From Pirellulales bacterium (GTDB lineage: Bacteria > Planctomycetota > Planctomycetia > Pirellulales > JADZDJ01): a stretch of DNA of 64,000 bases. Below are positions 7,077 through 63,457 of this stretch, in pieces. A model generated the notes under the pieces. It saw only the letters and a list, made by a program, of their open reading frames with translations. It was not told where the DNA came from and ran no database searches. The stretch lies in contig CAVZDC010000012.1 of NCBI GenBank assembly GCA_963773925.1, positions 128,553 through 192,552 of the forward strand, in the 5' to 3' direction. Numbering within the stretch: the first letter of the stretch is position 1; every line of letters starts with the position of its first letter. A program made the translations under genes and the position numbers.

Positions 7077-7670
7077 TCATCCGGCATACGGCGCCACAAA
7101 ACTCCAATTTTGTCGCCGCATTCCGGCTTTCATCGGGTTCATCTCCACGTACTCGATAGCGCCACGCATCTGTTGTGGAGTGTTGATGAAAACATACCAG
7201 CTCCTTTTTCCCCATGGACTGGGCGTGCGGCCATTTCGGCGCGAATGGGATTGCATCGGATTGACGCCCAATTCGTTCAGCCGCCGGGTAGCAGCTCGTT
7301 TGAGTAATTCAGCAATTTCTTCAGCATTTCGTCGACGTAGCCCAAGAACCAGCTGCGCGTGGTCCCGCATGATCGAGCAGGCATAAACCGGTAATTGCAA
7401 GAGTTCGGCCAGCGATGCAAATCCGTCGATGATCGCCCGCGCCTGGGAACCAGTGAATCGCACCGGAGGATATTTGAGCGTGTTCCTGGTGCCGATACTT
7501 GGCGGATGATCAGGAGACTCCGCGGCGACGGATTGTCGAGTCAACAATTTCAGTGCGGTACCAACGGGACTAAGGTTTCTGGCCCCCACATACTTCCACC
7601 ACCAACCCCGCGGATCATTGGGCAGCGAGAAACCGTACGCCCCGAAAATGACATGGTAACCGATGGCCAT
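7077..7670 (-). CDS. IS200/IS605-like Y1 (HUH-type) transposase homolog, RayT-like
   Basis: ORF 7077..7670: MAIGYHVIFGAYGFSLPNDPRGWW... then IMRDHAQLVL at the HUH position (reads H-A-Q) and IEYVEMNPMKAGM (the Y..NP tyrosine motif). No terminal inverted repeats or second transposition gene seen. Confidence 0.5.
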   Translation of the reverse strand: MAIGYHVIFGAYGFSLPNDPRGWWWKYVGARNLSPVGTALKLLTRQSVAAESPDHPPSIGTRNTLKYPPVRFTGSQARAIIDGFASLAELLQLPVYACSIMRDHAQLVLGLRRRNAEEIAELLKRAATRRLNELGVNPMQSHSRRNGRTPSPWGKRSWYVFINTPQQMRGAIEYVEMNPMKAGMRRQNWSFVAPYAG

Positions 7671-7749: not shown

Positions 7750-8240
7750 TCAGCCGATGTGGTGGCCGATCGGTTCCAGCGTATCTTCGAAGCGGCGCAC
7801 GGCTTCGTCGGGATTCAGATTGAAAATCGCGCGGCCTTCGGTCATCCAGCGGTGCTTCGGATCGAAGTAAAACACCGCGGTGGCATACTTGGCGTTGTCG
7901 ACCGCTTCCACTTCTTCCATGCCGCCGCCGGCGATCGCTTCGAACTTGATCGACACCGCCACAAAAGCGGAAAGCGTGCCCGATTGCCGATCGCGGGCAT
8001 ACGTCACTTCGTTTTCAAATTCGCAATCGGCCCAGCGCAAGCCGCGCGGCTTGCCGGAGGCGGCCGGCCTTGGTAAGAAACTTGGCCTCGAGCTGTTCGC
8101 GCATGCGATGGAACTGCTGCTGCGCATCGAGCAGTTGCCGTTGGCGGTCGCCGGCGGCTTTTTTTTTGCCCAAGCACCACCGCCAAGCACGAGGCATACA
8201 ACGAACCGATACCCGCCACAATCCATTCAATCGCCGCCAT
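7750..8240 (-). CDS. Hypothetical membrane-anchored protein (frameshifts, one at a T-run near 8160)
   Basis: Pieced from ORFs 8004..8240 (MAAIEWIVAGIGSLYASCLAVVLG, a TM helix), 8015..8443 (coiled-coil-like DRQRQLLDAQQQFHRMREQLEAKF) and 7750..8226 (C-terminal domain). No family recognised. Confidence 0.35.
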
Positions 8241-8303: not shown

Positions 8304-11300
8304 TTAGTACCGGGCTCGATGGCAGCCAGAAAAATGTGGACGGCCATCCATCGCCCCGCCAGGCCGCCCAGACAGCATTCCCGGCGAGAAATTGGCGAAT
8401 TTGGCGACGTAGCTCTTCGTCCGCGGCCTTCGGTTTTCTTCACCGGTCACAGCGTTTGCGGGGTCAAAAGTGCTTCCAGCGTGACCGACGGCTGAATCGT
8501 CGGGCAGCGTTTTGCGGCCGGCATCCTTGATCAGCGTCACACCCGTCGTCACGTTGATCCGCACCTGCACCAGCGTGGCATTGCCGGCGTAGTCGGTGAT
8601 CGTGAAGCTGACCACGCACGAACGAACCTAGCGCATCGGTCTGCAGTGCAGACACATGCTTCGCGTCGTTCAGCTTGATGTCTTGGCGGACCAATCGCGG
8701 AGCGGCGCTGTCGTCGTTCACATAGCCTTCGATCGACAACGTGCTGCCGTTGTTCAGGTCGGCCGATGTTGATCGTGGTGATCGCATTCTTCCCCAGCGT
8801 GAAGCTCGGCGGAATGTTGTCGCCATACACGAACAACGTCCGCGTCTGGCCGAGAATGGTCCGCGTGACCAGGTTCCAGCCGTTCACCAGCGGCGTGGCA
8901 GTCGTTTCCTTCACCGTCACGTAGCCGCCTGCTTTCGCCTTCGGATCGCTGGGGTTGTAATACTTGTACGACAGCAGATATGGGCCGTTGTCCTGATTCA
9001 CGTAGCGCTTGCTCACCAGTTGCAAATCCGGCAGCGGCGAAGTGAGCGAACCGACCAGCGCATCGATGCGCGGATTCGTGGCGGCGGCATCGGCCGGCGC
9101 CACCATGCCACCCACCGCCAGGCCGTATTGGTCCATCAACTGCTGATTGGTTTGATCCACCAGTGCCGCGGGCACAAACGACGGCACGCCGCGCGGCGGC
9201 GGTCGAATCGAACGGTTTGAAATTCGCCGCCTGCTCTTTGTAATAAAGCTGCTGATTGTTCAGCGTGACCGTGCCCATGCGAATCACGTCGGGATTGAAA
9301 ATCCGCGTGATGTCGTTTTGCGAGTTGTCGAAATTCGACTGCAGCTTGATGTCGAACTGCTGGCGTGTTTTCAGCGCCGTCGCGCTCAGCGTGCCAAACT
9401 GCGGCTGCATCCGATCGGAATTGCTGTAGATATTCACGGCGCGCGTGCGGCTTTGGGCGGTTTTGATCAACAGCCCGTTGATGTCGTTGAAAAATCCGCC
9501 GTTGATGGTGGTCGTGCCGTTCACCGGCACGTCGATGCCGGTTTCCCAGCCGACGGCGTACACGTGATCGTAAATCATGTCGCGAGTCACGTCGTTGATG
9601 GCAAACCCGGTGCCCCCCGGCGCACTCACATTGCCGGTGACGGAGACATTCCTCAGCGTGGTGAGCGCGGTGTACGGCGTGAACACCCCCTTGCCGCTGG
9701 AATTATCGAACGTGGTGAAGTTTTCGATCACGTTGCGCTGATCCGGGATGGCTGCCGTCAACGCCCAACAGCGTGAACCACGTTTCCAGCCCGTCGGCAT
9801 TGGCAAACGCGATGTTGCCGCTGAATTCGCGCAGCGGCACGTTGCCCACGTCGATCATCGTTTGCCCCGGCGCTGCCCAGGCGGGATTGACCAGGTCGGC
9901 GACCGGAATCTGCGTAATGCCCAATCCTTTTTGATCCAGTCCGCGCGGGAAGAAGATGTATCCGGCGCTGCGCTGGCCGGCCACGATGTTGTTCGTGACC
10001 GACACGTTGCCCCCCTGCAGCCAGAAGCCGTTCCCCTGGTGGCCGAAATCCTGCTGCGTGACGCGGCTATCGACGTTTTCGCCCGAGCCGTGCGAATGAA
10101 TGGCGATGTTGCCGTTGAACGTGCCGATTTCGTCGCCGGCCTCGGTCACGATACGCGGCCCCCACGGCGTTGAACACCACGTTGCCTTCCACGTCGACGT
10201 TGCTGCTGTGATTCACAATGCCCCAGCCCGGCGAATCGACCACCGAGCTGTCGCTGATCGTGGCGGGATCGTCCCCTTCGTCGATGCCGGTGCGGTGGAA
10301 ATGCACGGCATACCGGCCGCGCGGATTCAAACCGGTGCGGGCCACCTGCATCTGCGTCACGCCGTTGACCACCACCGGCTTGCCGTTCTCGTCGAGCACC
10401 GGAACCATCACGCGCTGGCCGGTTCTGGAATCGATCACGTCGGTCGTCATTTGGCCGGGATGATCGGGATCCGGCGTCAGCACCGGATCGTCGATCGGCG
10501 TGCGCTTGTCGGTGCGCCCCAGGCCGTAGAACCCGGCGGCATCGACGTGCACGTTGTCGTTGTGCATGAACATCACGTGCCCGCGGCGGGCCACCGTAAC
10601 CACATTTTGCGATTCGAACGTGGCATTGCGCGAAACATCGGCCACGTAACCGGAGATCACGGGGTGCGCATACGTCAGCCCCTTCCAATTCGCGACTTTC
10701 GGATCGGTGATGGTGACCACGGTGTGGCCGTCGGCCGTGGTTGCCCGACGCTGACAATTTGCACCTGCTCGTCGTGATTCACGCCGCGGCTATTCATGGC
10801 CGTATCGCCGGTAAGCACCAGCCGATCGCCCGCTTTCCAGCCCGTGGGCGTTTGTGCCAGCACCAGCTGTGTAGCGCCGGCCTTGGCATCGACGGCCAAC
10901 TGCTCGAAGCTGGTCACGGTCGAGCCGAAAATGCTCACCTCGCCGTGCGACACCAATCCCCGGCTGAATTGCAAGGGATCCCACGCCAGATCGATCGGGC
11001 CCGTGTCGGCGAAGATCACCTGGGCGCGCACGTTAGCATCGATGCGCTGTCCCATGCCCGTGGGGCTAAGCGGGTCGGGCTTGGTGGGATCGGTGCCCAT
11101 TTGAAACACGCCCTCCGGTTCGACGATGATCGTATCGACCGACAAGAGCGTGTTGGCGTGCGGGTCGAAGCGCAGCGTGCCGTCGTCGCGGATCGTGTGC
11201 AGGGGGCTGCTGAACTGGGCATCGACGATCACCACGCTGCCCATCGAAATCAGCACGTTCGCCGCCGGCGCCGGGAATCGGGCTGGGAGCAGCGCCGGGG

Positions 11301-11609
11301 CCGACGTACGTCCATGTGTTCGGATCCGACCAGTTCTCCGGCGTCGCGCCCGGCTTGGAGATATACGTGAGCGAAGAATCAGGCACCAGCCCGCCGGTAA
11401 TTACGCCGGTCGTGGCATCGCGTGCCCCAAACACCGCCAGGTGCTCGGCATCGAGCACCACGTTCGCGTGCAGCAGCATCCGCGATTCCAGACGCTCCAG
11501 CGCTAATCTCAGTGAGACGGGCCGTTTCCGCCAGCGGCGTGCGGTCGCCGGCGTTGTGATTCAAATGTCGACGGGACGAGGTGCGAGCGCGCAGTAGACT
11601 GAGGTGCAT
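8304..11609 (-). CDS. Large secreted G8-domain / right-handed beta-helix protein (at least 8 frame switches)
   Basis: Start ATG 11609 with GAGGAG 7 nt upstream. Leader ...LRLALERLESRMLLHANV. G8-like region ENWSDPNTWTYVGPG...VIVDAQF...DGTLRFDP...LSVDTIIVEPEGVFQMGT. Then beta-helix-like repeats (NGNIAIHSHGSG, GFWLQGGNVSVTNNIVAG). Followed through ORFs 11379.., 11066.., 10675.., 10067.., 9703.., 8754.., 8549.., 8464.. and 8304... Confidence 0.65.
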
Positions 11610-12804: not shown

Positions 12805-12839
12805 GCAGAAGGCGAAACTCGAAACCCGAAACTCTAACC
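12805..12839. repeat. Direct array of five heptamers: GCAGAAG GCGAAAC TCGAAAC CCGAAAC TCTAACC
   Basis: Read directly. It fills the 32-nt gap between the convergent nfo stop (12801) and mntH stop (12834..12836) and contains the mntH stop codon. Confidence 0.7.
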
Positions 12840-21289: not shown

Positions 21290-23130
21290 ATGCAATATAA
21301 GTTCTTTGCCCGAGCTCGCCGTTTCGGCCGGCGCGCCATTGGCGTGCCAATCGGCGTTTACATTGCCGGCATTGCGGCCGCAGTGGCGCTGGCCATGTTG
21401 TTGGTGCTGTTGGCGCTGTTGGTCGAATTGCTGGCCACCCGCGGCGCGTTGGACAACCGTGCATGACCGACACCTGGCTTTCAACCGCCAGCCGCCATTG
21501 GAGCGCCTCGCACGGGGCAGAGACCACCGGCCACGGCCTGCTGGCTTATGTTTGGCGCCGCCATGGCGTTGTCGCTGATGGCCGCCGGAATGCTGTACTG
21601 GTTGGAATGGTCGGTGCAGAGCTCGGCGGTCCGGTTGGCCAGCGCGCTGCGAAAGCAAATCTACGTTCAGGCCCATCAACTGGGTGCGTGCGATTTGTTC
21701 GGGGGCCGCAAGATGACGTCGTCCAATCTGCTGCAGCAAAGCACCGACATCGTGCGCCGGGCCCAGGTGGCATGGTGGCGCGTGGTTCCACATGCCGCGG
21801 CGTTCGCCCTGTTGATGCTGGCACTGGCGGTTTCGATCGAGTTTCTGCCTGACGATGTCGACCATTCTGCTGGCGGGCATTGGGCTGGTGGATGGTGGTC
21901 GTGCTGCGCAAGCGCGCCCGCCGGCGCGGCACTGGCGGCCGATCGCGCGCAGCATTTCAACGAAATGTTGTTGGAACATCTGGCGTCAGAATCGATTGCT
22001 GGGCAATCTGACCAGCGAAGCGCGCATGCAGGCCCACTCGTTCGACGAGAACTTGCGGCACTTACGACGCGGCGCTGTTGGCGCGCGAAACGACCACCTC
22101 CGAGGTCGGCCCGCTGGTCACGCTGCTGCTGCTGATTGGGGCCTCGTTGGTTTTGCTGCTGGCCGGTTACAACGTGCTGCAAGAGCCGCCGCGGCTTTCG
22201 CTGGCCGACGTGGTGCTGCTGGTTTCCGCGCTGGGGGCGCTGGCCTATCCCTTGGTTCGTTGCGAACGGCTGTTGGCGCTGTTGCCTTCCGCCGACACCG
22301 CCGCCGAAGAAATTTTCGGCTACCTGGATCGCGAGCCGCTGGTCGGTCAGTTGCCGCAGGCCGTGCCGCTGGAGCGGCTGGTGCCACGAAGTGAAAATGG
22401 AAAACGTGAGCCTGCTGGACGGCTGGGGAAAGAAATTGTTGCAGGATGTTTCGTTGCACGCTTCCCGCCGGCAGTCAGACCGTGCTGTTTTCCTCCGACG
22501 AAGCGACACCGCTGGCGCTGGCCGGGCTATTGGCGCGGTTCTGCGATCCGGCGTCCGGCCGAATTCTGTTCGACGGACGGGAAATCAAAGCTGGCCACGC
22601 TCGATTCCGTGCGGCATCAGGTGGCGCTGATCCTGCCGGAAAATCTGCTGTTCAGCGGCACGCTCGCGGAAAATCTCGTGGGCGAAGACACGCACTTTTC
22701 GTTCGACGAACAAATCGAAGCGCTGAAATCGGTGCACGCTTACGATTTCATCCAGGCCCTGCCGGAAGGCTTGAAAACCATGATCGGTCCGCACGGGCTG
22801 ATGCTTTCCGCCGGGCAGGCGATCCGGCTGGGATTGGCGCGAGTGCTGTTGCGCAAGCCGTCGATCGTGGTGATCGAAGAGCCGCTGGAAGATCTCGATC
22901 AGGCGACGGCGGAAAAAGTCGGCGACGCGCTGGATCGTGCGGCGAAAGGCTGCACGCTGGTGTTTCTCGCCCGCCGGTTGGCGGCATTGCGTGCCGCGCC
23001 GCGAATTCTGGTGTTTCACGAAGGCCGACTGATCGCCGACGGCACGCACCCGGAGCTGTTGCAGCAAAACGATCTATACCGCCATTTGAACTACGTGCGG
23101 TTCAACGAATTCCGCGGCAAAGTGCGATAG
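21290..23130 (+). CDS. ABC exporter-like protein (TMD plus NBD) with fully degenerate nucleotide-binding motifs (at least 5 frame switches)
   Basis: TMD pieces in ORFs 21179.., 21548.., 21855.. and 22078... NBD: VKMENVSLLDGWGKKLLQDVSLHLPAGSQTVLFSSDEATPLALAGLLARFCDPASGRILFDGREI, LILPENLLFSGTLAENL, LSAGQAIRLGLARVLL, PSIVVIEEPLEDLD, TLVFLARRLAAL. Confidence 0.65.
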
Positions 23131-23131
23131 C

Positions 23132-23183
23132 GGTCAGCGATCGGTAGTCAGCACCCTGGCTCCTGACCCCTGACCTCTGATCA
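23132..23183. repeat. Inverted heptamer arrays: GGTCAGC GATCGGT AGTCAGC, spacer, CTGACCC CTGACCT CTGATCA
   Basis: Read directly. It occupies the gap between the convergent stops of the ABC-like gene (23130) and the Gfo/Idh/MocA gene (23184). Confidence 0.6.
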
Positions 23184-34406: not shown

Positions 34407-35286
34407 TCAAATCCGTTCCGCGATACGCAGCTTCGCGCTGCGGCTGCGGGGGTTTCGGGCAATTTCCGCCTCGTGCGGCGTTATCGGTTTTTTGGTGATC
34501 GGCTTCAGCCGCGGATCGTTTTGAAATGCTTCCTTCACCGGGCGATCTTCCAGCGAATGAAAGCTGATGATCGCCAGCCGTCCGCCGGGCTGCAAACAAT
34601 CGGGCAATCTGCGTAAGGCAATCTCCAGGGATTTCAGTTCGTCGTTCACCGCAATTCGCAAGGCTTGAAACGTGCGAGTGGCCGGGTCGATCCGTTGCTT
34701 CCGCGCCACCGCCGGCACGGCCTGCCGCACGATATCGGCCAACTGCCGCGAGGTGTTGAATCGGGTTGTGGTGCCGCCGCTCGACAATCGCTTTGGCGAT
34801 CCGCCGGCTGAAACGCTCCTCTCCAAAGTGAAAAATGAAATCGGCCAGGTGTTCGGCGCTCAGCCGATTCACCAGCCGCGAAGCCGGCTCGCCTTTGAGC
34901 GGATTGAATCGCAAATCCAACGGACCATCGGCATCGAAACTAAACCCACGCGAGGCGTCGGCCAACTGATCGCTCGACAAGCCCAAGTCCAGCACGAATG
35001 CCATCGACCGTTTTCACTCCGATTTCCGCCAACAGTTCCGGCAGCTCGCAATAATTTCCTTGGATCAGTTCGATCGGCAATCCGCGCAGGTTTTCGCCCG
35101 CCGCCGCCACGGCCGCCGGATCGCGGTCCACGCCGATCACTCGCCCCGTCGGTCCACGCGCTCGGCGATCGCCCGCGCATGACCGCCGCCCCCCAAGGTT
35201 CCATCGACAAACACGCCGCCCGCTTGCGGATTCAGCCCCTCGAGGACCTCGGCCAGCAGAACGGGCTCATGACGTGCAGGTGGCAT
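34407..35286 (-). CDS. rsmH: 16S rRNA (cytosine1402-N4)-methyltransferase (at least 3 frameshifts)
   Basis: ATG 35286: [18 protein letters not shown]...[12 protein letters not shown]. Then ORFs 34940.., 34378.. ([19 protein letters not shown]) and 34407..34826 ([17 protein letters not shown]...ISFHSLEDR). Confidence 0.85.
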
Positions 35287-35522
35287 GGAATCTATCACCG
35301 CGGAAACACGGAAAACTGCCGCCGGCCCAATCGCCGCGATCGGCGAATGCCCATTCTAGCGCACGGCGAGCGCATAGCGCAGCAACGAATTCCGGTTTCC
35401 GCGAGCCCAAACCAGCGAAACACGCCACGATCGTGGCAACGGCATCCGCTTCGACAAGCCTTTGGCGGACGCAAGGCTGGGGTATGTACCGCTTTCGGCG
35501 GATTGGGGCAAGCGGAGTTCTG

Positions 35523-35607
35523 GAAAATGCAGAAGGCAAAAGGCAGAAATTTCGAGGGATCTTGCTGGTTTCCTGCCTTCTGCGTTCTGCTTTCTGCCTT
35601 GCATTTC
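35523..35607. repeat. Palindromic element built from heptamers: GCAGAAG GCAAAAG GCAGAAA, spacer, TTCCTGC CTTCTGC GTTCTGC TTTCTGC
   Basis: Read directly. The outer arms GAAAATGCA / TGCATTTC also pair. It lies about 240 nt upstream of rsmH. Confidence 0.65.
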
Positions 35608-36058
35608 GGCCGCCAAGGGCGAGGTGCTTCCATGTCACCCCGTGTGCCCTTGGAGACCGGTAGCCGACGAGTCGTTTAACGGGCCGACCGCGGCTGCTAT
35701 CGCCACCGACATCCATGCCGATGGCTTGCGCTTCGCAAGTCGCATCGCTCCAGCCCGTGGCCGACGGCTGGCGCAATGCATCGACTTGCAAAACCGCTGA
35801 TTGAGATCGTGATGGAAAAGAGCGGCGACCATCGATTCGATCGCCGCCCGATATTGCCCGGCTGTCGGCCTTCATCGTCAAGCGGGGTTTTTGTGGGAAA
35901 CCGATGCCAGGCGAAATTGCTTCGATAAGCCGCGCGAAAGCGCGTGCTAGCAACGCGTAAAATAATTACGGACGCCGGTCTTTTGTGAACAGGTGTTCAT
36001 GCACCTTGGGGACTAGCGGAATGCGGCTAGAATGGGCCGGCCTTGGATGTGTCTCGAT

Positions 36059-37128
36059 ATGGATTCAACACGCCGATCTGCCGTGACTTCTGAACTGGAA
36101 CAATACGATTACGATTTGCCTAAACAGTTGATCGCGCAGGAGCCGCTGGCAAATCGCTCCGACGCGCGGCTGATGATCGTCGATCGCCGGCGCGGCGCGA
36201 TCAGCCATCATCATGTGCGCGACCTTCCCGAACTGCTGCGGCGCGGCGATCAATTGGTGCTCAACGACACGAAGGTCATTCCCGCCCGACTGGTTGGCCT
36301 GCGCGACACCGGCGGACGCTGGGAAGGCCTGTTCCTGTCGCAGGAGCCCAGCGGCGCCTGGCAATTGCTGTGCAAGGCGCGCGGCAAGCTTACAGCGGGC
36401 GAAACCATTCAATTGCTCGATCCGCTGGCGCGAGGATACGCAATTGCGCCTGGTCGCCAAGTCGGAGCAGGGGGTTTGGCTGGCCCGGCCGGTTTCGGAA
36501 GAACCCCCCATGAAAATCTTGGAGCGCATCGGCCGCGTGCCGCTGCCCAAATACATTCGCAAAGGCGAAATGGTCGAAGCGGACCGACAGCGCTATCAAA
36601 CCGTTTTCGCGCGGCACAGCGGATCGGCGGCCGCGCCCACCGCGGGCTTGCATTTCACCGCCGAGCTACTGGCCCGCTTGCAAGCCGCCGGAATCGACGT
36701 CGTGAAAGTTACCCTGCACGTCGGGACTGGATACATTCGCTCCGATCCGCTCGCAAAAGCTGGCGGCCCACAAAATGCACAGCGAATGGGGACGCATCGA
36801 CGACGCCACGGTGGAACAATTGATTCGCGCTCGCAAAAGCGGCGGGCGAATTGTGGCCGTGGGCACCACCTCGGTGCGCGTGTTGGAAACGGCCGCCGCC
36901 GACGGCGTGCTCCGCCCCTGGGAAGGGCAAACGCAACTCTTCATCCGCTCGCCCTACCGCTTTCGCGCCGTCGATGCACTGATGACCAACTTTCACTTGC
37001 CCCGCACCACGCTATTGATTTTGGCGCGCACCTTCGGCGGCGACGACTTGATCCGCCGGGCCTACGACGAGGCCATTCGCCAGGAATATCGCTTTTACAG
37101 CTACGGCGATGCGATGCTTATAATCTGA
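36059..37128 (+). CDS. queA: S-adenosylmethionine:tRNA ribosyltransferase-isomerase (two frameshifts)
   Basis: ORFs 36032.., 36213.. and 36775..37128: YDYDLPKQLIAQEPL..RSDARLM, VPLPKYIRKGE, AAPTAGLHFT, AVGTTSVRVLE, LMTNFHLPRTTLL. Confidence 0.85.
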
Positions 37129-37958: not shown

Positions 37959-39189
37959 ATGGCGAGCGACTACCCCATTTACATGGATAACCACGCGACC
38001 ACGCCGGTGGATCCGCGCGTGCTCGAGGCCATGTTGCCGTATTTCACCGAGCAGTTCGGCAATGCCGGCAGCACCAGCCATCGCTACGGCTGGGAAGCAA
38101 AAGAAGCGGTCGATGCGGCGCGGGAATCGATCGCCGCAGGCATTGGTGCCCAGCCGCGCGAAATCGTGTTCACCAGCGGCGCCACGGAAAGCAATAATCT
38201 TGCCTTACTCGGCGTGGCCGAGCGCGCCAAAGAGCGAAAGCCCGGCTAAGTCGGTTCACATCGTCAGCGTCGCCACCGAACACCGGGCGGTGCTCGACCC
38301 ATTGGCGCATCTGGAAAGGCATGGGTGCGAAGTCACGCTGCTGCCTGTCGAACAAGCCGGCAGCTCGCGGGCGGGCTTGATCACGGCCGATCAAGTGGCA
38401 GCAGCAATTCGCGACGACACTGCCCTGGTTAGCGTAATGCTGGCGAACAACGAAATCGGCGCCATCCAGCCGCTCGCGGAAATTGGCGCCGTTTGCCGAT
38501 CGCGCGGCGTGCTGCTGCATACCGATGCCACGCAGGCGGTGGGAAAAATCCCGGTCAACGTCGATGATCTAAAGGTCGATCTGCTCAGCTTCTCGGCGCA
38601 CAAAATCTACGGCCCTAAAGGAATTGGGGCATTGTTCGTGCGGCGCCGCGCACCGCTGGTGAAACTGGAGCCGCAAATCTTCGGCGGCGGTCAGGAAAAC
38701 GGCTTCCGCAGCGGCACCGCCAATGTGCCAGGCATTGTCGGTTTCGCCCGGGCGCTGGAATTGTGCATCGAAGAAATGCCGCGCGAACAGCCGCGGCTGG
38801 CGAAATTGCGTGATCGGCTCTACGCTGGCTTATGCGAACGCTTGGATAACATCGGCCTGAACGGCCCCGCCCTCGATCAACCAACACTGCGCCTGGCGGG
38901 CAATTTGAATGTCAATTTCGGCTATGTCGAAGGCGAAGCGTTGCTATTGGACATGCAGGATCGCCTGGCCGTCAGTTCCGGCAGCGCATGCACCTCCGCC
39001 GATCCGCAACCCAGCCACGTGCTGCGAGCTTTGGGCCTGCCGGAAGATTTAGTCCGCGGCAGCCTGCGCTTCGGCCTGGGGCGATTTAACTCCGCCCCGG
39101 AAGTCGAAACCGCGATTGAGGTGATTACCGATTCCGTCGATCGCCTGCGCAAGCTCAGCAGCATGGCGATAGAGACGAATTACCAATGA
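37959..39189 (+). CDS. iscS: Cysteine desulfurase, IscS/NifS family (frameshift near 38240)
   Basis: ORF 37959..38249 ([18 protein letters not shown]...[10 protein letters not shown]) joined to ORF 38062..39189 ([16 protein letters not shown], the PLP lysine; SSGSACTS, the active-site Cys). Confidence 0.85.
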
Positions 39190-40208
39190 CCAAGCATCAA
39201 TGACCATTGACTCCCATCAGCATTGGTCACGGATATCTGGTCGCAGTCTCGCGCGTCGAGCACCGTTTCCAAATCCGCCGCCAACGGGGCCTCAAACGTC
39301 AGTTCTTCGCCGCTCACCGGGTGCCGCAGCTTCAGCCGCCGCGCATGCAACGCTTGCCGGTTCAGCAGAATTTGGTGGTCGTTCGGGATCGCGGCGAATT
39401 TCTCCCCGCGTGATCTCCGCCCGCCCCCCGTATTGCTTGTCGCACAACACCGGGCAAGAGATGGCCGACAGGTGCACGCGAATTTGATGCGTCCGCCCCG
39501 TCTTCGGCGCACCGCGCAGCGCGGCGAAACCGTCGAACCGTTCCGCGACCTCATAGAACGTTTGCGCCGGCCGGCTGGTGGTGTGCTCGCGGCGGATCGC
39601 CATCTTTTCGCGCTGATAGGGATGCGCGCCGATCGGCATGTCGATCACGTCCCGATCCCGATCCGGCACGCCGACCACGATGGCGAAATATTCCTTCTCC
39701 ACGGTGCGCTTGCCGAACTGCTCGGCCAGCGCGTAATGGGCGGCATCGGTCTTGGCCACCACCAGCACGCCGCTGGTGTCGCGATCCAGGCGGTGCACAA
39801 TGCCCGGCCGCGTCGGCCCGCCCGCGCCGCTGAGCTTTTCGAAATGAAACGCCAGGGCGCTGGTGAGCGTGCCGGCCCAGTGCCCCTTGGCCGGATGCAC
39901 CACCATGCCCGGCGGCTTGTTGACCGCCGCCAGGTGCTCGTCTTCATACAGAATATCCAGCGGAATATCTTCCGGCACCGGCCCGGGGCGCGGCGGCTCG
40001 GGCAGCGTGATCGACAATTGCTGGCCGCCTTTCAGCCGTTGTCCCGCTTTGGCCGGTCTGGCCATTCAGCGTGACGCCGCCGGCATCGATGGCGCGCCGC
40101 AGAAACGCACGGCTGAATTGCAGGAAATTGCCGGGCCAGATAAACGTCGAGCCGACAACCGGCATGCTCCGCCTCGACCACACGCTCTATCGGCGGTTGA
40201 GAGGACAT
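39180..40208 (-). CDS. rluD: 23S rRNA pseudouridine synthase, RluA/RluD family (about 3 frameshifts; the C-terminal tail is probably repeat-derived)
   Basis: ATG 40208: [28 protein letters not shown] (S4-like). ORF 39292..40065 ([20 protein letters not shown]...[18 protein letters not shown]...[11 protein letters not shown]). ORF 39180..39554 ([23 protein letters not shown]). Confidence 0.8.
39182..39230. repeat. TGACCAA-type heptamer element, copy 1 (ACCAATGACCAAGCATCAATGACCATTGAC...CATTGGTCAC)
   Basis: Matches the left arm of the 44058..44144 element with 2 mismatches over about 28 nt. It contains the iscS stop codon (39187..39189) and encodes the last residues of the ORF assigned to rluD. 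Confidence 0.7.
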
Positions 40209-41219: not shown

Positions 41220-41254
41220 TTCTGCCTCCTGATTCCTGACGCCCGATTCTCGAC
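41220..41254. repeat. Direct heptamer array TTCTGCC TCCTGAT TCCTGAC GCCCGAT TCTCGAC
   Basis: Read directly. It ends 1 nt before the TTG start of uvrD. Confidence 0.5.
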
Positions 41255-41255
41255 C

Positions 41256-43223
41256 TTGTCTCTCAATCCTGCCCAGCGCGACGCCGTCGAAACTCTAGCT
41301 GGGCCGCTGTTGGTATTGGCCGGCGCGGGCACCGGCAAAACACGAGTCGTTACCCATCGCATCGCCCGTCTGATGCAGCACCGCACTCGGCCCGAGCGGA
41401 TTCTGGCCGTCACCTTCACCAACAAGGCGGCCGGCGAAATGCAGCGAGCGTGCCGCGCAACTGTTGGGCAAACGCCAGAACCCAAACAGCGGCCGGAAAT
41501 CTCCACCTTCCATTCGCTGTGCGTGCGAATTCTGCGGCGGCAAATTCATCACCTGGGCTACCCGCGCCAATTCGCAATCTTCGATCGCGGCGACCAGGAA
41601 GGCATCGCCCGCCAAGTGCTGCGCGAGCTGCGCGTGGCGGGCGAAAAGCTCCGCCCCGGCGATTTGCTGTATTTCATCGGCCGCTGGAAAGCGTCGTGCC
41701 TGCGGCCGGACGACGCCATTACCGCCGCGCAAACCGACAAGGAACATCTCGCCGCCTCCGGCTACCGCCGCTATCAGGATGCCTTGAAAACGGCCGGCGC
41801 GGTCGATTTCGACGATCTGCTGCTGCTGACCGAAGAGCTGTTCGACCGGCTGCCCGACGTGCGCCGCGCGGAAGCCGGCCGCTTCGATCATCTGCTGATC
41901 GACGAATATCAAGACACCAATGCCAGCCAGTATCGGATCGTGAAGGCGCTGGCCGAGGGACATCGCAATTTGTGCGTGGTGGGCGACGACGATCAATCGA
42001 TCTACGGTTGGCGCGGCGCCGAAGTGGAACACATCCTGCGCTTCCAGCACGATTGGCCCGAGGCAAAAGTCGTGCGCCTGGAAGACAACTATCGCTCCAC
42101 CGAATCGATTCTGCGAATTCGCCAATCGGCTGATCGCTTTCAACCGAAATCGCCACGAAAAAGTGTTGCGCGCCGCGCGCCCGGCGGATTGACGCCGACC
42201 ATTTTGCAATGCCAGGACGAAACCGCCGAAGCCGATGAAGTGATCAAGGACATTCAATTGCAGATTCGCCGCGGCCTCCAGCCGCGCGACGTCGCCATTT
42301 TGTGCCGCACCAACGAACAGCCCCGGCCGTTTGAAATGGCGCTGCGGCGCGAAAAACTTCCCTACGTGCTGATCGGCGGCCAATCGTTTTACGATCGCCG
42401 CGAAGTAAAAGATATTTTGGCCTATCTGCGCGTGCTGGATAATCCCGGCGACGAGCCGTCGCTATTGCGGATCATCAACGTGCCGCCGCGCGGCATCGGC
42501 TCCAGCACCGTCAAGGCGCTGCTCCAGCGCGCGGTAGAGCAGGGCACCCCGCTTTGGAATGTCATTTCGTGCGACGCCGCCGAAGCGGTCCAAAAGTTCT
42601 GCGCATTGATCGACGCTTTTCGCCGACCCGCGGCAAGCAAATCGCTCGCCGGCTTAGCAACGGCGCTCATCAATGAGGTGAAATATCAAACCGAGCTGGC
42701 GCGCCAATACCCCGACGCCAACGAACAGCAATCGCGCTGGGCCAGTGTGCAGGACGTGATCAACACGCTGGCGGCCTACGAGAAGCGAGCAAAAAAGCCC
42801 ACGCTCCGCGGCTTTCTTGACGAAGTTGCCCTGGGCCAGCGCGACGAGGCGGCCGACCGCCAGTCGAAACTCGATCGCAACGCCATCGCCCTGATGACGC
42901 TGCATTCTGCCAAGGGCTTGGAATTTCCGCACGTGTATCTGGCTGGCATGGAAGAGGGCCTCTTGCCGCATCAAAAATCGGTCGACGCCGAAAAGCACGG
43001 CGACATGAACGCCATCGACGAAGAGCGGCGTCTATGCTACGTGGGCGTGACCCGCGCCCGCGACCGCCTGACCATGACGCTGGCCCTGTCGCGCATGAAA
43101 TGGGGCAAAAGCCGACAAACGATCCCCAGCCGATTTCTCTACGAGCTCACCGGCCAGGCCGAGAAAACTCAAACCGCCAAACCCACAAAGCACCCTCGCA
43201 AGAAGCAAGTGACTCGCGCTTAA
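41256..43223 (+). CDS. uvrD: UvrD/PcrA/Rep family ATP-dependent DNA helicase (single ORF hiding two compensated frameshift pairs, near 41443/41475 and 42110/42185)
   Basis: AGAGTGKT, FTNKAAGEM, DEYQDTN, GDDDQSIYGWRGA, LMTLHSAKGLEFP, YVGVTRAR. The alternative frame restores the conserved ILEFANRLIAFNRNRHEKVL and ERAAQLLGKRQ segments. Confidence 0.85.
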   Translation: MSLNPAQRDAVETLAGPLLVLAGAGTGKTRVVTHRIARLMQHRTRPERILAVTFTNKAAGEMQRACRATVGQTPEPKQRPEISTFHSLCVRILRRQIHHLGYPRQFAIFDRGDQEGIARQVLRELRVAGEKLRPGDLLYFIGRWKASCLRPDDAITAAQTDKEHLAASGYRRYQDALKTAGAVDFDDLLLLTEELFDRLPDVRRAEAGRFDHLLIDEYQDTNASQYRIVKALAEGHRNLCVVGDDDQSIYGWRGAEVEHILRFQHDWPEAKVVRLEDNYRSTESILRIRQSADRFQPKSPRKSVARRAPGGLTPTILQCQDETAEADEVIKDIQLQIRRGLQPRDVAILCRTNEQPRPFEMALRREKLPYVLIGGQSFYDRREVKDILAYLRVLDNPGDEPSLLRIINVPPRGIGSSTVKALLQRAVEQGTPLWNVISCDAAEAVQKFCALIDAFRRPAASKSLAGLATALINEVKYQTELARQYPDANEQQSRWASVQDVINTLAAYEKRAKKPTLRGFLDEVALGQRDEAADRQSKLDRNAIALMTLHSAKGLEFPHVYLAGMEEGLLPHQKSVDAEKHGDMNAIDEERRLCYVGVTRARDRLTMTLALSRMKWGKSRQTIPSRFLYELTGQAEKTQTAKPTKHPRKKQVTRA

Positions 43224-43247
43224 GCCCAGGGGTTGCAACCCCTGGGC
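43224..43247. repeat. Palindrome GCCCAGGGG-ttgcaa-CCCCTGGGC, copy 1, between convergent uvrD and the PIG-L gene
   Basis: Read directly. The same 9-bp arms recur at 46016..46039. Confidence 0.7.
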
Positions 43248-43266
43248 TCCGCACGAGTATCGTTCG

Positions 43267-44039
43267 TCACCGCGGCGGCTCCGGCGGCGCAGGCTGATCG
43301 CCCGGCTTCTGCCCAAACAGAAAGTGCATCAGGTCGCGCGTGCCGATCAAGCGCGGGCTGGAAAACATCTCGCCTGCGGGAAAACCGGCCGCCGTGCCAA
43401 GTTGGATGGCGAACGCCCTGACCCGCTCTTCGATCTGCTTTTCCGGCTGTGCCCCGAACTGAGTTTTGTAGCAGCGAATTGCTTCCAGCTTGGTTTGCAG
43501 CGTGTCGCCGATTTCGACTACCAGGTTGCCTGCCCCCGGCGGTACGCCAAAAGAGGTGAACGCCAACGTGTAGTACAAATAGGCCGTGATCGGTGTGGAC
43601 CGGCAAATTCTCGAAGTACTGATCCCACTTGGTCAGCCGCGCTGTAGAATACGCCGGCATCGGTAATTTGCATCGCCTGAAAATGGTCGGGCGAGGCCAG
43701 CGGCGTTTTTTCGCCGAAGCCGAGCACCAACCGCGGCCGATAGCGGCGAAACACTTTGGCCAGGGCCACGCGGGCTTCAAACGTATCGAACAGCCGCCGG
43801 TTGGGCAGGCCCAATTGCAGCCGCACTTGCACTCCCAGCTTTGCGGCGGCCGCTTTGGCCTCCGCCGCCCGATGCTCCGGCCCCGGCGAGTGCGGCGTCG
43901 GCTCGCCGTCGGTCAGATCGACGATGCCCACCCGATAGCCCTGCTTGGCGAGCTTGGCCAGCGTGCCGCCGCAGGCAATCTCCACGTCATCCGGATGGGC
44001 CCCAACCGCGATCACGTCGAGTGGCCGTTCGTCGGTCAT
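43267..44039 (-). CDS. PIG-L/LmbE family deacetylase (two frameshifts)
   Basis: ORF 43518..44039 ([21 protein letters not shown]), then ORFs 43220.. and 43267..43578. Confidence 0.75.
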
Positions 44040-44057
44040 AGCTGCTTTCCTAGGTCA

Positions 44058-44144
44058 GAATGACCAATGACCAAGCACCAATGACCAATGCGTTTCATGT
44101 CGTCTCGCCCTATTGGTCAATGGGATTTGGTCATTGGTCATTTG
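44058..44144. repeat. Inverted heptamer arrays: TGACCAA TGACCAA GCACCAA TGACCAA, about 17-nt spacer, TTGGTCA ATGGGAT TTGGTCA TTGGTCA
   Basis: Read directly. The outer 16 nt AATGACCAATGACCAA / TTGGTCATTGGTCATT are perfectly complementary. The right arm contains the cobL stop codon (44138..44140). Confidence 0.8.
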
Positions 44145-45391
44145 CTTACCGTCCCCTTCACCACGCTCAGCAAAAACGTCGGATTCAGCGCATTGAACCG
44201 GATGCGTTCCAATTGATACGTGCCGCGGGCAATATTGACCATCAGCACCTGCACGTCGCTGCCGGCGCGATGCAAGGCTTCGTCCACCGCCGCCAACAGT
44301 TCGATGCTGCCCACGTTGGCCACCAATCGCCCGCCCGGTTTGAGTTGCTTGTAAGCCAATTCCACCAGGCGGGCAATTTCGCGGCCGCTGCCGCCGACAA
44401 AAATGCAATCCGGCGAAGGCAGTTTTTCCCATGCTTCCGGCGCCCGGCCAAGCACCGGCTTCAAATTCTTCACGTGAAAGCGCTCGGCGTTGGCGCGGAT
44501 CAGATCGATATCTTCCGGATCCATCTCGATGGCGTACGCCGTGCCTTCGCTGGCCAACAGCGCCGCCTCGACCGACACCGAGCCGCTGCCGGCGCCAATG
44601 TCCCAAACAACGCTTTTGGGCCCAATGGCCATCTCCGCCAGCGCGATGCTGCGCACTTCGGCCGGCGTCAGCAGCCCGCGCTTGGGCCGCGCCTGCAAAA
44701 ATATCTCGTCCGGATTGCCGAACCGCCGCAGCAGTTGGGCATCGGAGGGCCGATCGGGCGTCGCCTCCCGCCGCACCAATATCATCACATTCAGCGGGGC
44801 AAACTTCTCGCGGGCCAATTCGGCCAGCGAGCCATGGGTCACCCGTTCATCGGGCGAGCCCAAATTCTCGCACACGTAACCAGTGAAGTAATCGATGCGC
44901 TGATCCAATAGTGCCTGGGCCACCGCGGCCGGCGGATGTTGCTCGCTGGTGAATAGCCCCACCGTATCCGCCACGCGAATTTTCTCGATCAGCGAATCCA
45001 ACGAGTGCGTGGCGAGATTCGTGAGAAACGCATCTTCCCAGCTTTCTTTCACTCGCGCGAACGCCAACTGCATGCTGCTGACGTGGGGCAGCACTTCGAA
45101 GCGATCTTTTCCCAGCTTATCGCACAGATATCGCGCTACGCCGTAAAACAGCGGATCGCCGGATGCCAGCACGACGACTTTCTTATCGCCGGCCTTGGAA
45201 ATCTGCTGCACTGCGTCGTCCAAATTCGCGCCCAGCGTGACCCGCTGCTTGCCCGCCGATTTCGGCAGCAACTTCAGCGTGCTGTCGGCCCCCAACAGCA
45301 GATCGGACTCGTCGATCAGCTTGCGGGCCTGCACGGTGATGCCCTCCAGCCCGTCGTCGCCGATGCCAATGATGTGAGTTTTGTTGGCCAC
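44138..45391 (-). CDS. cobL: Precorrin-6Y C5,15-methyltransferase (decarboxylating), CbiE/CbiT fusion
   Basis: Intact ORF: VVVLASGDPLFYG (CbiE) and VVWDIGAGSGSVSVEAA (CbiT SAM-binding site). Confidence 0.8.
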   Translation of the reverse strand: MANKTHIIGIGDDGLEGITVQARKLIDESDLLLGADSTLKLLPKSAGKQRVTLGANLDDAVQQISKAGDKKVVVLASGDPLFYGVARYLCDKLGKDRFEVLPHVSSMQLAFARVKESWEDAFLTNLATHSLDSLIEKIRVADTVGLFTSEQHPPAAVAQALLDQRIDYFTGYVCENLGSPDERVTHGSLAELAREKFAPLNVMILVRREATPDRPSDAQLLRRFGNPDEIFLQARPKRGLLTPAEVRSIALAEMAIGPKSVVWDIGAGSGSVSVEAALLASEGTAYAIEMDPEDIDLIRANAERFHVKNLKPVLGRAPEAWEKLPSPDCIFVGGSGREIARLVELAYKQLKPGGRLVANVGSIELLAAVDEALHRAGSDVQVLMVNIARGTYQLERIRFNALNPTFLLSVVKGTVSK

Positions 45392-46638: not shown

Positions 46639-46778
46639 GGGCCAATCCTCACTGGTTCAATGCCGCGCGCGAATTTTGCAGGACGCCATATATATTTAGG
46701 TCATGCCGACGCCCGCGGCAACCAAATTGGCGGCGATTTCGCCAGGAATCGGATCCACCCGCTACACTGCCGGGCAAA

Positions 46779-48150
46779 CTACTTGCCGATGCAAAATCGG
46801 CTGAAAATGCGATCCAATATGTCGTCGGTATAGACGGCCCCGACGATCTTTCCCAACTCCGATCAGCGCCACTCGAAGCTCGGCGACCACCAATTCTTCC
46901 CCCGCCGCGTCGGCAGCCAACTGCCGCGATCGGACCAGTGCCGCCTCGGTCAGCCGCACACTATTGTTGATCCGGACTGCGGTGCCGGCTACAACGCCGC
47001 TTGGGGCGGCACCCAGGACCAAAGCCCGTCCGATCGCGGTTCGCAGCTCCTCCAGCCCTGCTCCCGTGCGGCTGCTGGTCGCAATGGCGGGACGAGTTAG
47101 CGTCGGCCCCTTGGCCGGCAAATCGCATTTCGTCAGCGTCACGATCGTGCTCTTGCAGCCCATTTGCGATTGCTCCCAGTCGTTCAGCGGCCGAGTAATG
47201 TCGAGGCACAGCAACCGCAGCTCGGCACGGTCGTGCTGCGCGGCCGCAGCCGATTGGGCGGCTTCGCCGATCGAATTCTGCTGCGGATCAGGATCGCGGC
47301 CGGCGGTATCGACTAGCTCGATCGCCAAACCACCGACGTCGATTCGAGCCACCAGATAATCGCGAGTGGTGCCCGGCTGGGGTGACACCAGCGCCGCCGA
47401 TCGTCGCACCAGCGCATTGAACAGGCTGCTTTTGCCGACATTGGGCGCGCCGGCCAGCGTTACCCGGGGCGCTTCGCTTGTTTCGCCCCGCGTGGCCAAT
47501 CGGGAAGCAAGTTGCTTCAGTTGCGTGCCGGCAGCAGAAAGCCGCCGGTCCAATTCGTCGGATGAAACAAAACGAATATCCTCTTCGGCGAAATCCAGCC
47601 CCGCTTCTAAATCCGCCAGCAAATCGAGCAGGTCATCCCGGAGTGCCCGCAGCGGATGCGACAATCCGCCCGCCAATTGCGCAAGCGCCGTGTTCAGTTG
47701 GCGGCGGTCGGCCGCATCGACCACGCCCAGCACGGCCTCGGCCTGCGTTAGATCGATTCGGCCGGCCAGAAAAGCGCGGAGCGTGAATTCGCCCGGCTGC
47801 GCCAGGCGCGCGCCGGCGGCGCAGACGCACTCCAGCAACCAATTCAACAGGGGCGGTGAGCCGATCGTGTGAAATTCCGCCAGCGGCTGCCGCGTGTAAC
47901 TGCGCGAAGTCGGCCACAGAAAGAGACCAATGGGGAACGGGGAATGAGGTATGGGGAATGCCGAGCGGCCGCCGATTGCGGTTGCTTCGACCAGCGTCCG
48001 CACCTCAATCGAGCGATCATCCGGCTGGAAACATCGCGCGACGATCTCAGTCACCGCCGGACCGCTCACGCGCACAATGCCGCGCGCCGCGCCGCCGGGA
48101 GCCGAGGCAATGGCCGCGATGGTGTCGTCGAGGGAGAACATAGAGAACAA
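46779..48150 (-). CDS. mnmE: tRNA modification GTPase MnmE (frameshift near 46860)
   Basis: ORF 46762..48150 has DTIAAIASAPG, GAPNVGKSSLFNAL and DTAG. After a slip the canonical C-terminus appears: ELGKIVGAVYTDDILDRIFSRFCIGK-stop at 46779. Confidence 0.85.
47929..47963. repeat. Heptamer array inside mnmE: AATGGGG AACGGGG AATGAGG TATGGGG AATGCCG (plus strand)
   Basis: Read directly. It is translated on the minus strand as ...SAFPIPHSPFPIG.... Confidence 0.5.
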
Positions 48151-63421: not shown

Positions 63422-63457
63422 ATACCAGACACTAGATACCAGGAACCAGACACCCAG
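63422..63457. repeat. Direct heptamer array ATACCAG ACACTAG ATACCAG GAACCAG ACACCCAG
   Basis: Read directly. It starts 3 nt beyond the stop codon of the cytochrome c' gene (63460..63462). Confidence 0.65.

Follow-up and report, generated by a model that had tools for sequence, protein, structure and literature searches.

Facing heptanucleotide arrays between cobL and a PIG-L deacetylase gene of a Pirellulales bacterium: a probable STRR-like repeat outside the cyanobacteria

The DNA considered here is a stretch of 64 kb from contig CAVZDC010000012.1 of a Pirellulales bacterium, referred to below as the window, and the subject of this work is the strongest close inverted repeat found anywhere in it, a pair of facing arrays of the heptanucleotide TGACCAA located at 44059–44142. 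The pair separates two genes, both on the minus strand. The upstream one is a fused cbiE-cbiT/cobL gene encoding precorrin-6Y C5,15-methyltransferase (44138..45391); the closest CobL homologues carry Pirellulales or Planctomycetota names. The downstream gene (43518..44039, with its ATG at 44037–44039) encodes a PIG-L/BshB1-like deacetylase and is split by a frameshift in the assembly. The repeat, which is predicted to form a hairpin, fills the entire 98-nt cobL–PIG-L spacer and reaches into the first of the two genes: the cobL frame is three codons longer than in the closest relative, locus L001 (loci from other genomes are designated by L numbers), and its stop codon, TGA at 44138–44140, lies inside the first heptamer. 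On the sense strand the second arm is followed by CUGACCU, then by a Shine-Dalgarno-like motif AGGAAAG (AGGAAA at 44046–44051) located 8 nt from the end of the stem-loop, and then by the ATG of the PIG-L gene.

Read on the plus strand, the first array comprises four 7-nt units, TGACCAA TGACCAA GCACCAA TGACCAA (44061–44088), and the second comprises four complement units, TTGGTCA ATGGGAT TTGGTCA TTGGTCA (44113–44140), exactly as given in the preliminary description, which had been made from the sequence alone. On the transcribed strand the 5′ arm reads AATGACC AATGACC AAATCCC ATTGACC AAT (44112..44142), its first unit containing the cobL stop, and the 3′ arm reads ATTGGTC ATTGGTG CTTGGTC ATTGGTC ATT (44059..44089); the loop between them (44090..44111) bears no sequence relationship to its counterpart at this site in L001. 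A repeat search of the window delimits arms of 31 nt each (44059–44089 and 44112–44142), 87% complementary and 22 nt apart, and the perfect complementarity claimed for the outer 16 nt is indeed there (44059–44074 versus 44127–44142). The spacer of about 17 nt proposed at the same time has to be corrected, as the gap between the two arrays measures 22–24 nt; about 13 nt stay unpaired in the minimum-energy fold, because extra pairs form within the gap. Tandem Repeats Finder (TRF) assigns the arrays 4.6 and 4.4 copies. RNA folding predicts, for the minus (sense) strand, a free energy of −44.9 kcal/mol (z −4.6) and, for the plus strand, one of −48.6 kcal/mol (z −7.1), and on neither strand did any of 200 shuffled sequences fold as well. 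The element thus consists of convergent arrays of one unit, close together and capable of forming a stem-loop, which is how the paired heptamer repeats of Xanthomonas are defined. It is also worth mentioning that an ATG within the unit ATGACCA opens a 283-aa antisense open reading frame (ORF) at window positions 44060–44911 on the plus strand.

The element is one of a class in the window. A scan based on a match/mismatch run score for periods of 4 to 15 nt found period 7 to be the sole enriched period, with five arrays in the whole window versus 0.3 expected; in intergenic DNA alone there are four arrays versus 0.19 expected, a number reached by none of 200 exact dinucleotide shuffles. TRF agrees, since six of its eight rows with a period of at least 5 and at least three copies have period 7, and TGACCAATGACCAA with up to two mismatches occurs five times versus 0.26 expected. 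These array statistics refer to the 64 kb of the source genome covered by the window. Altogether there are five clear and two weak heptamer loci, all at gene boundaries, built of the units TGACCAA, GCAGAAG, GGTCAGC, and CGAAACT, so that the unit sequence varies from site to site inside one genome. Both the existence of such a window-wide class and its placement at gene boundaries had been proposed from the sequence, and both proposals hold.

A smaller TGACCAA-family site at 39180..39232 (plus strand), absent from the preliminary description, reads TTACCAA TGACCAA GCATCAA TGACCAT, followed by a spacer and TTGGTCA; the TGA stop (39187–39189) of the gene at 38062..39189 lies within one of its units, which, together with the cobL stop, bears out the claim that arrays supply stop codons. 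The inverted arrays reported at 23132..23183 and 35523..35607 were found again, and both are predicted to fold. At 23132..23183 (plus strand) GGTCAGC faces CTGACCC (z −3.1) and fills the gap between the convergent stops of two genes, one for an ABC transporter and one for a GFO/IDH/MocA protein. In non-coding DNA upstream of rsmH, GCAGAAG (35524–35545) faces CTTCTGC (35573–35600; z −3.5) on the minus strand. Among the four sites listed earlier as arrays without an inverted partner only that at 12805..12839 stands, as CGAAACT in 3.1 copies at 12813..12834 (plus strand), within a 32-nt gap between two convergent stop codons. Two more are doubtful, both scoring below the run-score and TRF thresholds: a degenerate 7-nt periodicity of TCCTGAY at 41220..41254 (plus strand), directly 5′ of the uvrD start and not present in L001, L002, or L003, and a degenerate GTNTCTG periodicity at 63422..63457 (minus strand), directly 3′ of a TGA stop. 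The array placed inside mnmE (47929–47963) was rejected: it is coding and in frame (SAFPIPHSPFPIG, in a variable loop of MnmE), degenerate, without a TRF row, and indistinguishable from chance.

The history of these sites can be followed in relatives, for which orthologous loci were collected via CobL and ABC-transporter homologues. Synteny with the window extends over about 20 kb in L001 and L003, with a DNA identity of 78–82%, and L127 is 85% identical over 22 kb. At the cobL–PIG-L site L001, whose CobL is 92% identical, also carries an inverted pair, though of 8-nt units: AATGACTT AATGACTG AATGTCTA AATGACTA face four to five copies of TCATTCAG. In L003 (CobL 90% identical) the spacer is 265 nt long and contains no array, in L002 (CobL 81%) the two genes overlap by 4 nt (ATGA), and the spacers of L004 and L006 are 11 nt and 73 nt long, the latter array-free. 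The L003 spacer (11065–11330) could encode a hydrophobic protein of about 76 aa (MNTQWFSRKGWLYIPSSAPGVVLWILAALF...). Within each of the two genomes with a hairpin the arms pair without gaps (87% complementarity in the window, 83% in L001), whereas an alignment of the arms between the two genomes has 69% identity and needs one gap in each unit, which indicates that both arms changed their period together.

Upstream of rsmH, inverted GCAGAAG/CTTCTGC arrays are present in the window, L001, and L003 and are predicted to fold with z values from −3.5 to −4.7. Their loops, of 17, about 50, and about 50 nt, are unrelated in sequence, while the unit and the pairing are retained in the three species. 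Thus at two sites, cobL–PIG-L (window and L001) and upstream of rsmH (window, L001, and L003), the type of pair is kept in the same gene context while its length or sequence varies. Elsewhere hairpins come and go: the yidC–mnmE spacer contains a 90-nt hairpin of 8/16-nt units in L001 only, and the hairpin at the ABC/GFO junction is found in the window only, being absent from relatives at 85% and 81% DNA identity. All the hairpins tested, in the window and elsewhere, fold better than their shuffled versions (z −3.1 to −8.9), and no loop or core common to the hairpins of the window, L001, and L003 was seen. Metagenome scans with the PIG-L start and with the conserved rsmH-upstream flank found neither strains of the same species nor further orthologues.

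The direct arrays show how such repeats grow. CGAAACT is present in 3.1 copies in the window versus 3.9 at the orthologous site of L127, and is missing from L128. Directly 3′ of the acylphosphatase gene L128 carries AGCAACT in 5.4 copies (8087–8124), where L127 (8240–8250) has a single AGCAACTAG, encoding Ser-Asn-stop; the array was therefore made from local sequence, namely the terminal codons of the gene itself. At both sites length changes by whole units (3.1/3.9 and 1/5.4 copies), as judged by comparison between species.

The TGACCAA unit is widespread. A scan for three exact tandem copies in one genome per species, with at least 120 stretches listed, returned at least 76 cyanobacterial contigs, including those of Nostoc, Anabaena, Calothrix, Dolichospermum, and Microcoleus; at least 18 contigs of Planctomycetota (Pirellulales, Gemmataceae, Isosphaeraceae, Planctomycetaceae, and Phycisphaeraceae); at least 13 of Bacteroidota; at least four of Verrucomicrobiota/Victivallales; and at least nine others. 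An inverted partner was sought within 200 nt by local alignment (score of at least 12 of 21, with controls), as a search restricted to perfect partners finds only 3 of 120 among the matches listed and is an undercount. By this measure, and among the matches listed, 7 of 18 planctomycetal, 15 of 76 cyanobacterial (about 20%), and 1 of 13 Bacteroidota loci have a partner. Again among the matches listed, 40 of the 56 arrays with at least three copies in the planctomycetal loci have period 7, as do 9 of the 13 arrays in 170 kb not selected for arrays. Other units in these loci include GTTACTG, GGCGTTG, GTTAGGG, AATCCGC/GCGGATG, CTTCTGC, and CTGACAA; their hairpins are predicted to fold with z values from −5.7 to −8.9, many with one mismatch per unit.

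Some planctomycetal loci have a more complex structure. In a Zavarzinella metagenome-assembled genome (MAG) two 96-nt stretches, L080 2082–2177 and L118 4064–4159, are 92.7% identical and consist of TGACCAA in four copies and a core of 65 nt that is not part of an array; 13 copies of TTGGTCA come after the core in L080, and both stretches lie at contig ends. Judging from the sequence, this looks like a dispersed element with heptamer-array arms. In another MAG, MFD09964.bin.2.83, L015 (6185–6215) and L124 (6360–6395) share an inter-array motif of about 22 nt, TACNCAGTGCAANGTCCAAAAT, flanked by arrays of different units (GTTACTG, AAGTAAC, and TGACCAA). In L034, a Pirellulales MAG, GTTAGGG in 19 copies (7496–7627) reaches the contig end; the position of arrays at contig ends in L034, L080, L083, and L118 indicates that heptamer repeats break assemblies. 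In L033 (2401–2520) GCGGAAT-like and CTTCTGC arrays stand in frame between the ATG and an FTLLELV prepilin-type motif of a 412-aa ORF, where they may be part of a translated leader peptide or the sign of a mis-called start.

Heptanucleotide repeats of this kind are said to have been described in cyanobacteria by Mazel et al. in 1990, under the name of short tandemly repeated repetitive sequences (STRRs), and STRRs were originally defined as a feature of (heterocystous) cyanobacteria. One of them, STRR2, is reported to have the unit TTGGTCA in the same work, and the scan for TGACCAA is consistent with this assignment. The element shares with STRRs the tandem 7-nt units, the intergenic position, the presence at many loci, and the coexistence of several unit families in one genome; moreover, TTGGTCA/TGACCAA itself forms arrays in Nostoc, Anabaena, and Calothrix, and period 7 is enriched, so that the likeness to STRRs suspected at the outset is real. 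STRR hairpins of 7-bp repeats lie between the co-transcribed hupS and hupL genes of several cyanobacteria, where an effect on transcript stability or translational coupling was considered possible (Devine et al. 2009, PMC2670836); hairpin-forming inverted pairs between co-transcribed genes are thus common to both groups. The differences concern the host, here a Pirellulales planctomycete with 60% G+C, the shortness of the arrays (3–5 units), and the inverted partner, which among the matches listed is commoner in Planctomycetota than at cyanobacterial loci. As the host is not a cyanobacterium, the element is best filed under the broader class of heptameric simple sequence repeats (SSRs), as STRR-like.

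According to Rehm et al. 2015 (PMC4692102), heptamers are over-represented within this class in bacteria generally, and three heptanucleotides had been reported from Calothrix PCC 7601. Among long SSRs the over-represented class is that of the heptamers, an excess put down to slippage of the polymerase (Mrazek 2007, cited in PMC4679880 and PMC4692102). The surveys of long SSRs with units of 5–11 nt (Mrazek et al. 2007; Huang and Mrazek 2014, PMC4060949) likewise deal with longer-than-chance arrays, heptamers being the commonest, and with slippage; they are statistical, and neither the hairpin-forming inverted arrangement nor the way it behaves at orthologous sites in Planctomycetota is described in the passages of them considered here. 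The nearest structural parallel comes from Xanthomonas, where each genome has 70–75 convergent inverted GGGAATC pairs, the pair type being kept between species while the length varies (PMC4692102). The pairs of both groups are intergenic, can form stem-loops, and keep their gene context, as at the cobL–PIG-L and rsmH sites; in contrast, GGGAATC is G-rich, G-quadruplex-forming, and the one dominant family, whereas the units of the window lack G-tracts and belong to many unrelated families. The TAACTGA repeats of Beggiatoaceae, Cyanobacteria, and Bacteroidetes, for which binding by a post-transcriptional regulator was proposed (MacGregor 2015, PMC4679880), resemble the present repeats in that one specific heptamer is amplified in intergenic DNA with a patchy distribution across phyla including Cyanobacteria and Bacteroidetes. 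They often touch start codons and show indels in 7-nt steps between strains. Unlike the arrays of the window, however, they are nearly all direct (one inverted set in 170) and of a single unit family, and Planctomycetota are not mentioned in that paper. Searches of the accessible literature found no description of heptamer repeats in Planctomycetes, in line with what the preliminary description had supposed. The inverted heptamer design is not special to this genome, since it occurs across Planctomycetota and in about a fifth of the cyanobacterial TGACCAA arrays among the matches listed, and has been published for Xanthomonas; the element extends the heptamer repeats known from cyanobacteria and Xanthomonas to another lineage and is no new kind of element.

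We consider it fairly probable that 44059–44142 is an STRR-like heptameric SSR whose inverted tandem arrays arose and are changing in place by slippage, and not by insertion of a mobile element. Replication slippage would create and remodel heptamer arrays in place in intergenic DNA, and with inverted arrays the cobL–PIG-L transcript would carry a 30-bp imperfect stem-loop. By analogy with the repetitive extragenic palindromic (REP) sequences and bacterial interspersed mosaic elements (BIMEs) of enterobacteria, such a stem-loop might act as a barrier to 3′-exonucleases or as a processing or pause site. It might also break the translational coupling present in relatives with an ATGA overlap of the two genes. 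Alternatively it may have no role and simply be tolerated, as units whose length is not divisible by three can be accommodated in intergenic DNA only. Any gene entering the TGACCAA strand is terminated, since within 21 nt each of its frames meets a TGA. The matching of the two arms could be maintained by selection for pairing or by templated correction from arm to arm.

Several observations weigh against this explanation. Slippage acting independently on each arm does not predict the joint shift from 7-nt to 8-nt units between the window and L001, and it leaves unexplained both the recurrence of TGACCAA, CTTCTGC, and AATCCGC in distant genomes and the hairpins with one mismatch per unit. In two further genomes of Planctomycetota a shared core that is not itself an array lies next to arrays, which suggests that some inverted arrays may spread as units. 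The 7-nt steps come from comparisons between species, whereas the hallmark of slippage is polymorphism within a population. Transcription of the hairpin, its processing, and any effect on expression are inferences from the sequence. Finally, since the assembly of the window contains frameshift-like disruptions, exact copy numbers of the repeats need caution and could be slightly off.

The competing explanations differ in how much of this they can accommodate. The hairpins might be non-autonomous elements moved by a Y1/HUH transposase, similar to REPINs (hairpins formed by paired REPs) or to MITEs (miniature transposable elements with inverted repeats). A candidate source is the product of a RayT-like ORF of 197 aa at 7077–7670 (minus strand), which matches the NCBIfam family REP_Tyr_transpos (E 9e-12, 45 bits); its Pfam Y1_Tnp match has an E value of 0.13. 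L002 also has a Y1_Tnp gene, and hairpins are variably present in orthologous spacers. The 65-nt core shared by L080 and L118 next to TGACCAA in four copies keeps this explanation alive for some lineages, as does the loop motif of about 22 nt common to L015 and L124 of one MAG, and GTAG-tagged REPs have been reported in Planctomycetes (PMC3733652). Like REPs, BIMEs, and REPINs, the pairs are imperfect palindromes in intergenic DNA, often separating co-directional or convergent genes, in a window with a RayT-like ORF, and REP-type elements are transcribed as stem-loops affecting mRNA stability. However, the match of the RayT-like ORF is below the curated cut-off (45 versus 80 bits), and no arrays or hairpins occur at its flanks, so that the link to this gene suggested earlier lacks support. 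REPs have a genome-wide palindromic consensus of 20–40 nt, bear a GTAG or CGTC tag, and arise as copies of master elements; at the sites of the window and L001 the unit, loop, and length differ every time without a consensus, and the stems show an internal period. At the ends of the element neither a target-site duplication nor a GTAG/CGTC tag was found, and the direct arrays can be seen growing from local sequence and changing by whole units. An origin by transposition is accordingly unlikely. Identity with a REP or REPIN was rejected for want of a 20–40 nt consensus and a tag, the RayT-like gene being sub-threshold and without flanking repeats. Identity with a MITE was rejected as well, no shared core and no target-site duplication having been found in the window and L001–L003, with 64 kb of the source genome covered. 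The Y1_Tnp protein encoded in L002 (5765–6358) is a different one, of the same length as the product of the RayT-like ORF but barely similar to it.

A function of the arrays as multimeric sites bound by a sequence-specific factor, of the DNA- or RNA-binding kind and for instance a post-transcriptional regulator, the hairpin being secondary, is improbable too. It would account for the amplification of the identical unit TGACCAA in Cyanobacteria, Planctomycetota, Bacteroidota, and Verrucomicrobiota, for the recurrence of a few unit families in unrelated Planctomycetota, and for the many arrays abutting start codons or Shine-Dalgarno motifs, and MacGregor (2015, PMC4679880) argued likewise for TAACTGA. 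It fits poorly with at least five unrelated units inside 64 kb of one genome and with arrays that stand in both orientations, after stops, between convergent genes, and upstream of starts, and that come and go between close species without visible change in gene content; nor is there a candidate factor. That the hairpin is an intrinsic transcription terminator separating cobL from the PIG-L gene is very improbable, in spite of the stable stem-loop directly 3′ of a stop codon and of two other arrays located between convergent gene ends. No sense-strand sigma-70 promoter or terminator site was found at the element in a promoter and terminator scan, the sole terminator-like match being on the antisense strand; on the sense strand the stem is followed not by a U-run but by CUGACCUAGGAAAGC. 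The AT-rich 30-bp stem is unlike canonical terminators, the Shine-Dalgarno-like motif and the ATG come right after it, and the overlap of the two genes or their distance of 11 nt in relatives indicates one operon, which also counts against a terminator. An artefact of assembly or polishing is scarcely credible: the PIG-L, ABC-transporter, and mnmE genes have disruptions that look like frameshifts, as is typical of long-read assemblies, yet homologous arrays occupy the same sites in the independent assemblies L001, L003, and L127, TGACCAA arrays are found in isolate genomes and short-read assemblies from many laboratories as well, and random indel errors could not produce phased 7-nt units on both arms.

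A more far-reaching idea, which we hold to be a long shot, is that heptamer-array hairpins are the substrate of a conserved, sequence-aware system common to Cyanobacteria, Planctomycetota, and Bacteroidota, either a factor recognizing or writing particular units (TGACCAA, CTTCTGC, and AATCCGC) or a new mobile element with heptamer-array terminal repeats. If it existed, such a system would hold both arms of a hairpin in step, as in the joint change from 7-nt to 8-nt units, and could build exchangeable helical arms into structured RNAs, for example in the conserved region of about 290 nt upstream of rsmH.

That region has features of its own. The hairpin lies inside non-coding DNA in all three species (window 35400–35760 on the minus strand, L001 20340–20760, L003 19580–19980), and its flanks are about 90% invariant among them, compared with about 80% for the surrounding genes. 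RNAalifold applied to the three sequences predicts a multi-stem structure of which the hairpin is one arm, with 90 pairs, three of them with compensatory changes. A search of 35100–36100 against Rfam at E ≤ 1 gave no match; possibly the region represents a leader or small RNA that has yet to be described. A ‘gene’ of 94 aa has been called across the hairpin in L001 (20489–20773); like the 283-aa antisense ORF at the cobL–PIG-L site, this call indicates that heptamer arrays seed spurious gene calls.

Nowhere in the window did a family of Rfam 15, the cobalamin riboswitch included, match at its gathering score, which speaks against a riboswitch or a known small RNA, and ARAGORN detected no tRNA or tmRNA. 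Three genes look disrupted by frameshifts: the PIG-L region (43220–44039) contains two overlapping ORFs where relatives have a protein of 256 aa, the ABC-transporter ORF (22078–23130) encodes 350 aa compared with 610 aa in relatives, and the C-terminus of MnmE (46762–46900) diverges from the conserved ending. These are assembly indel errors or pseudogenes.

The heptameric repeats of bacterial genomes have been on record as an oddity since 1990. What the present analysis adds is that the TGACCAA unit and the hairpin design occur commonly in Planctomycetota, across at least five orders, that direct arrays can be caught arising from the terminal codons of a gene itself, and that hairpin pairs persist at a site while their unit length, copy number, and loop change. 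In practical terms, the arrays provide genes with stop and start codons, give rise to spurious ORFs, break assemblies, and can mislead gene callers in MAGs of Planctomycetota. This phylum becomes the second or third independent lineage in which it can be asked why units of 7 nt are favoured and whether the hairpins are selected.

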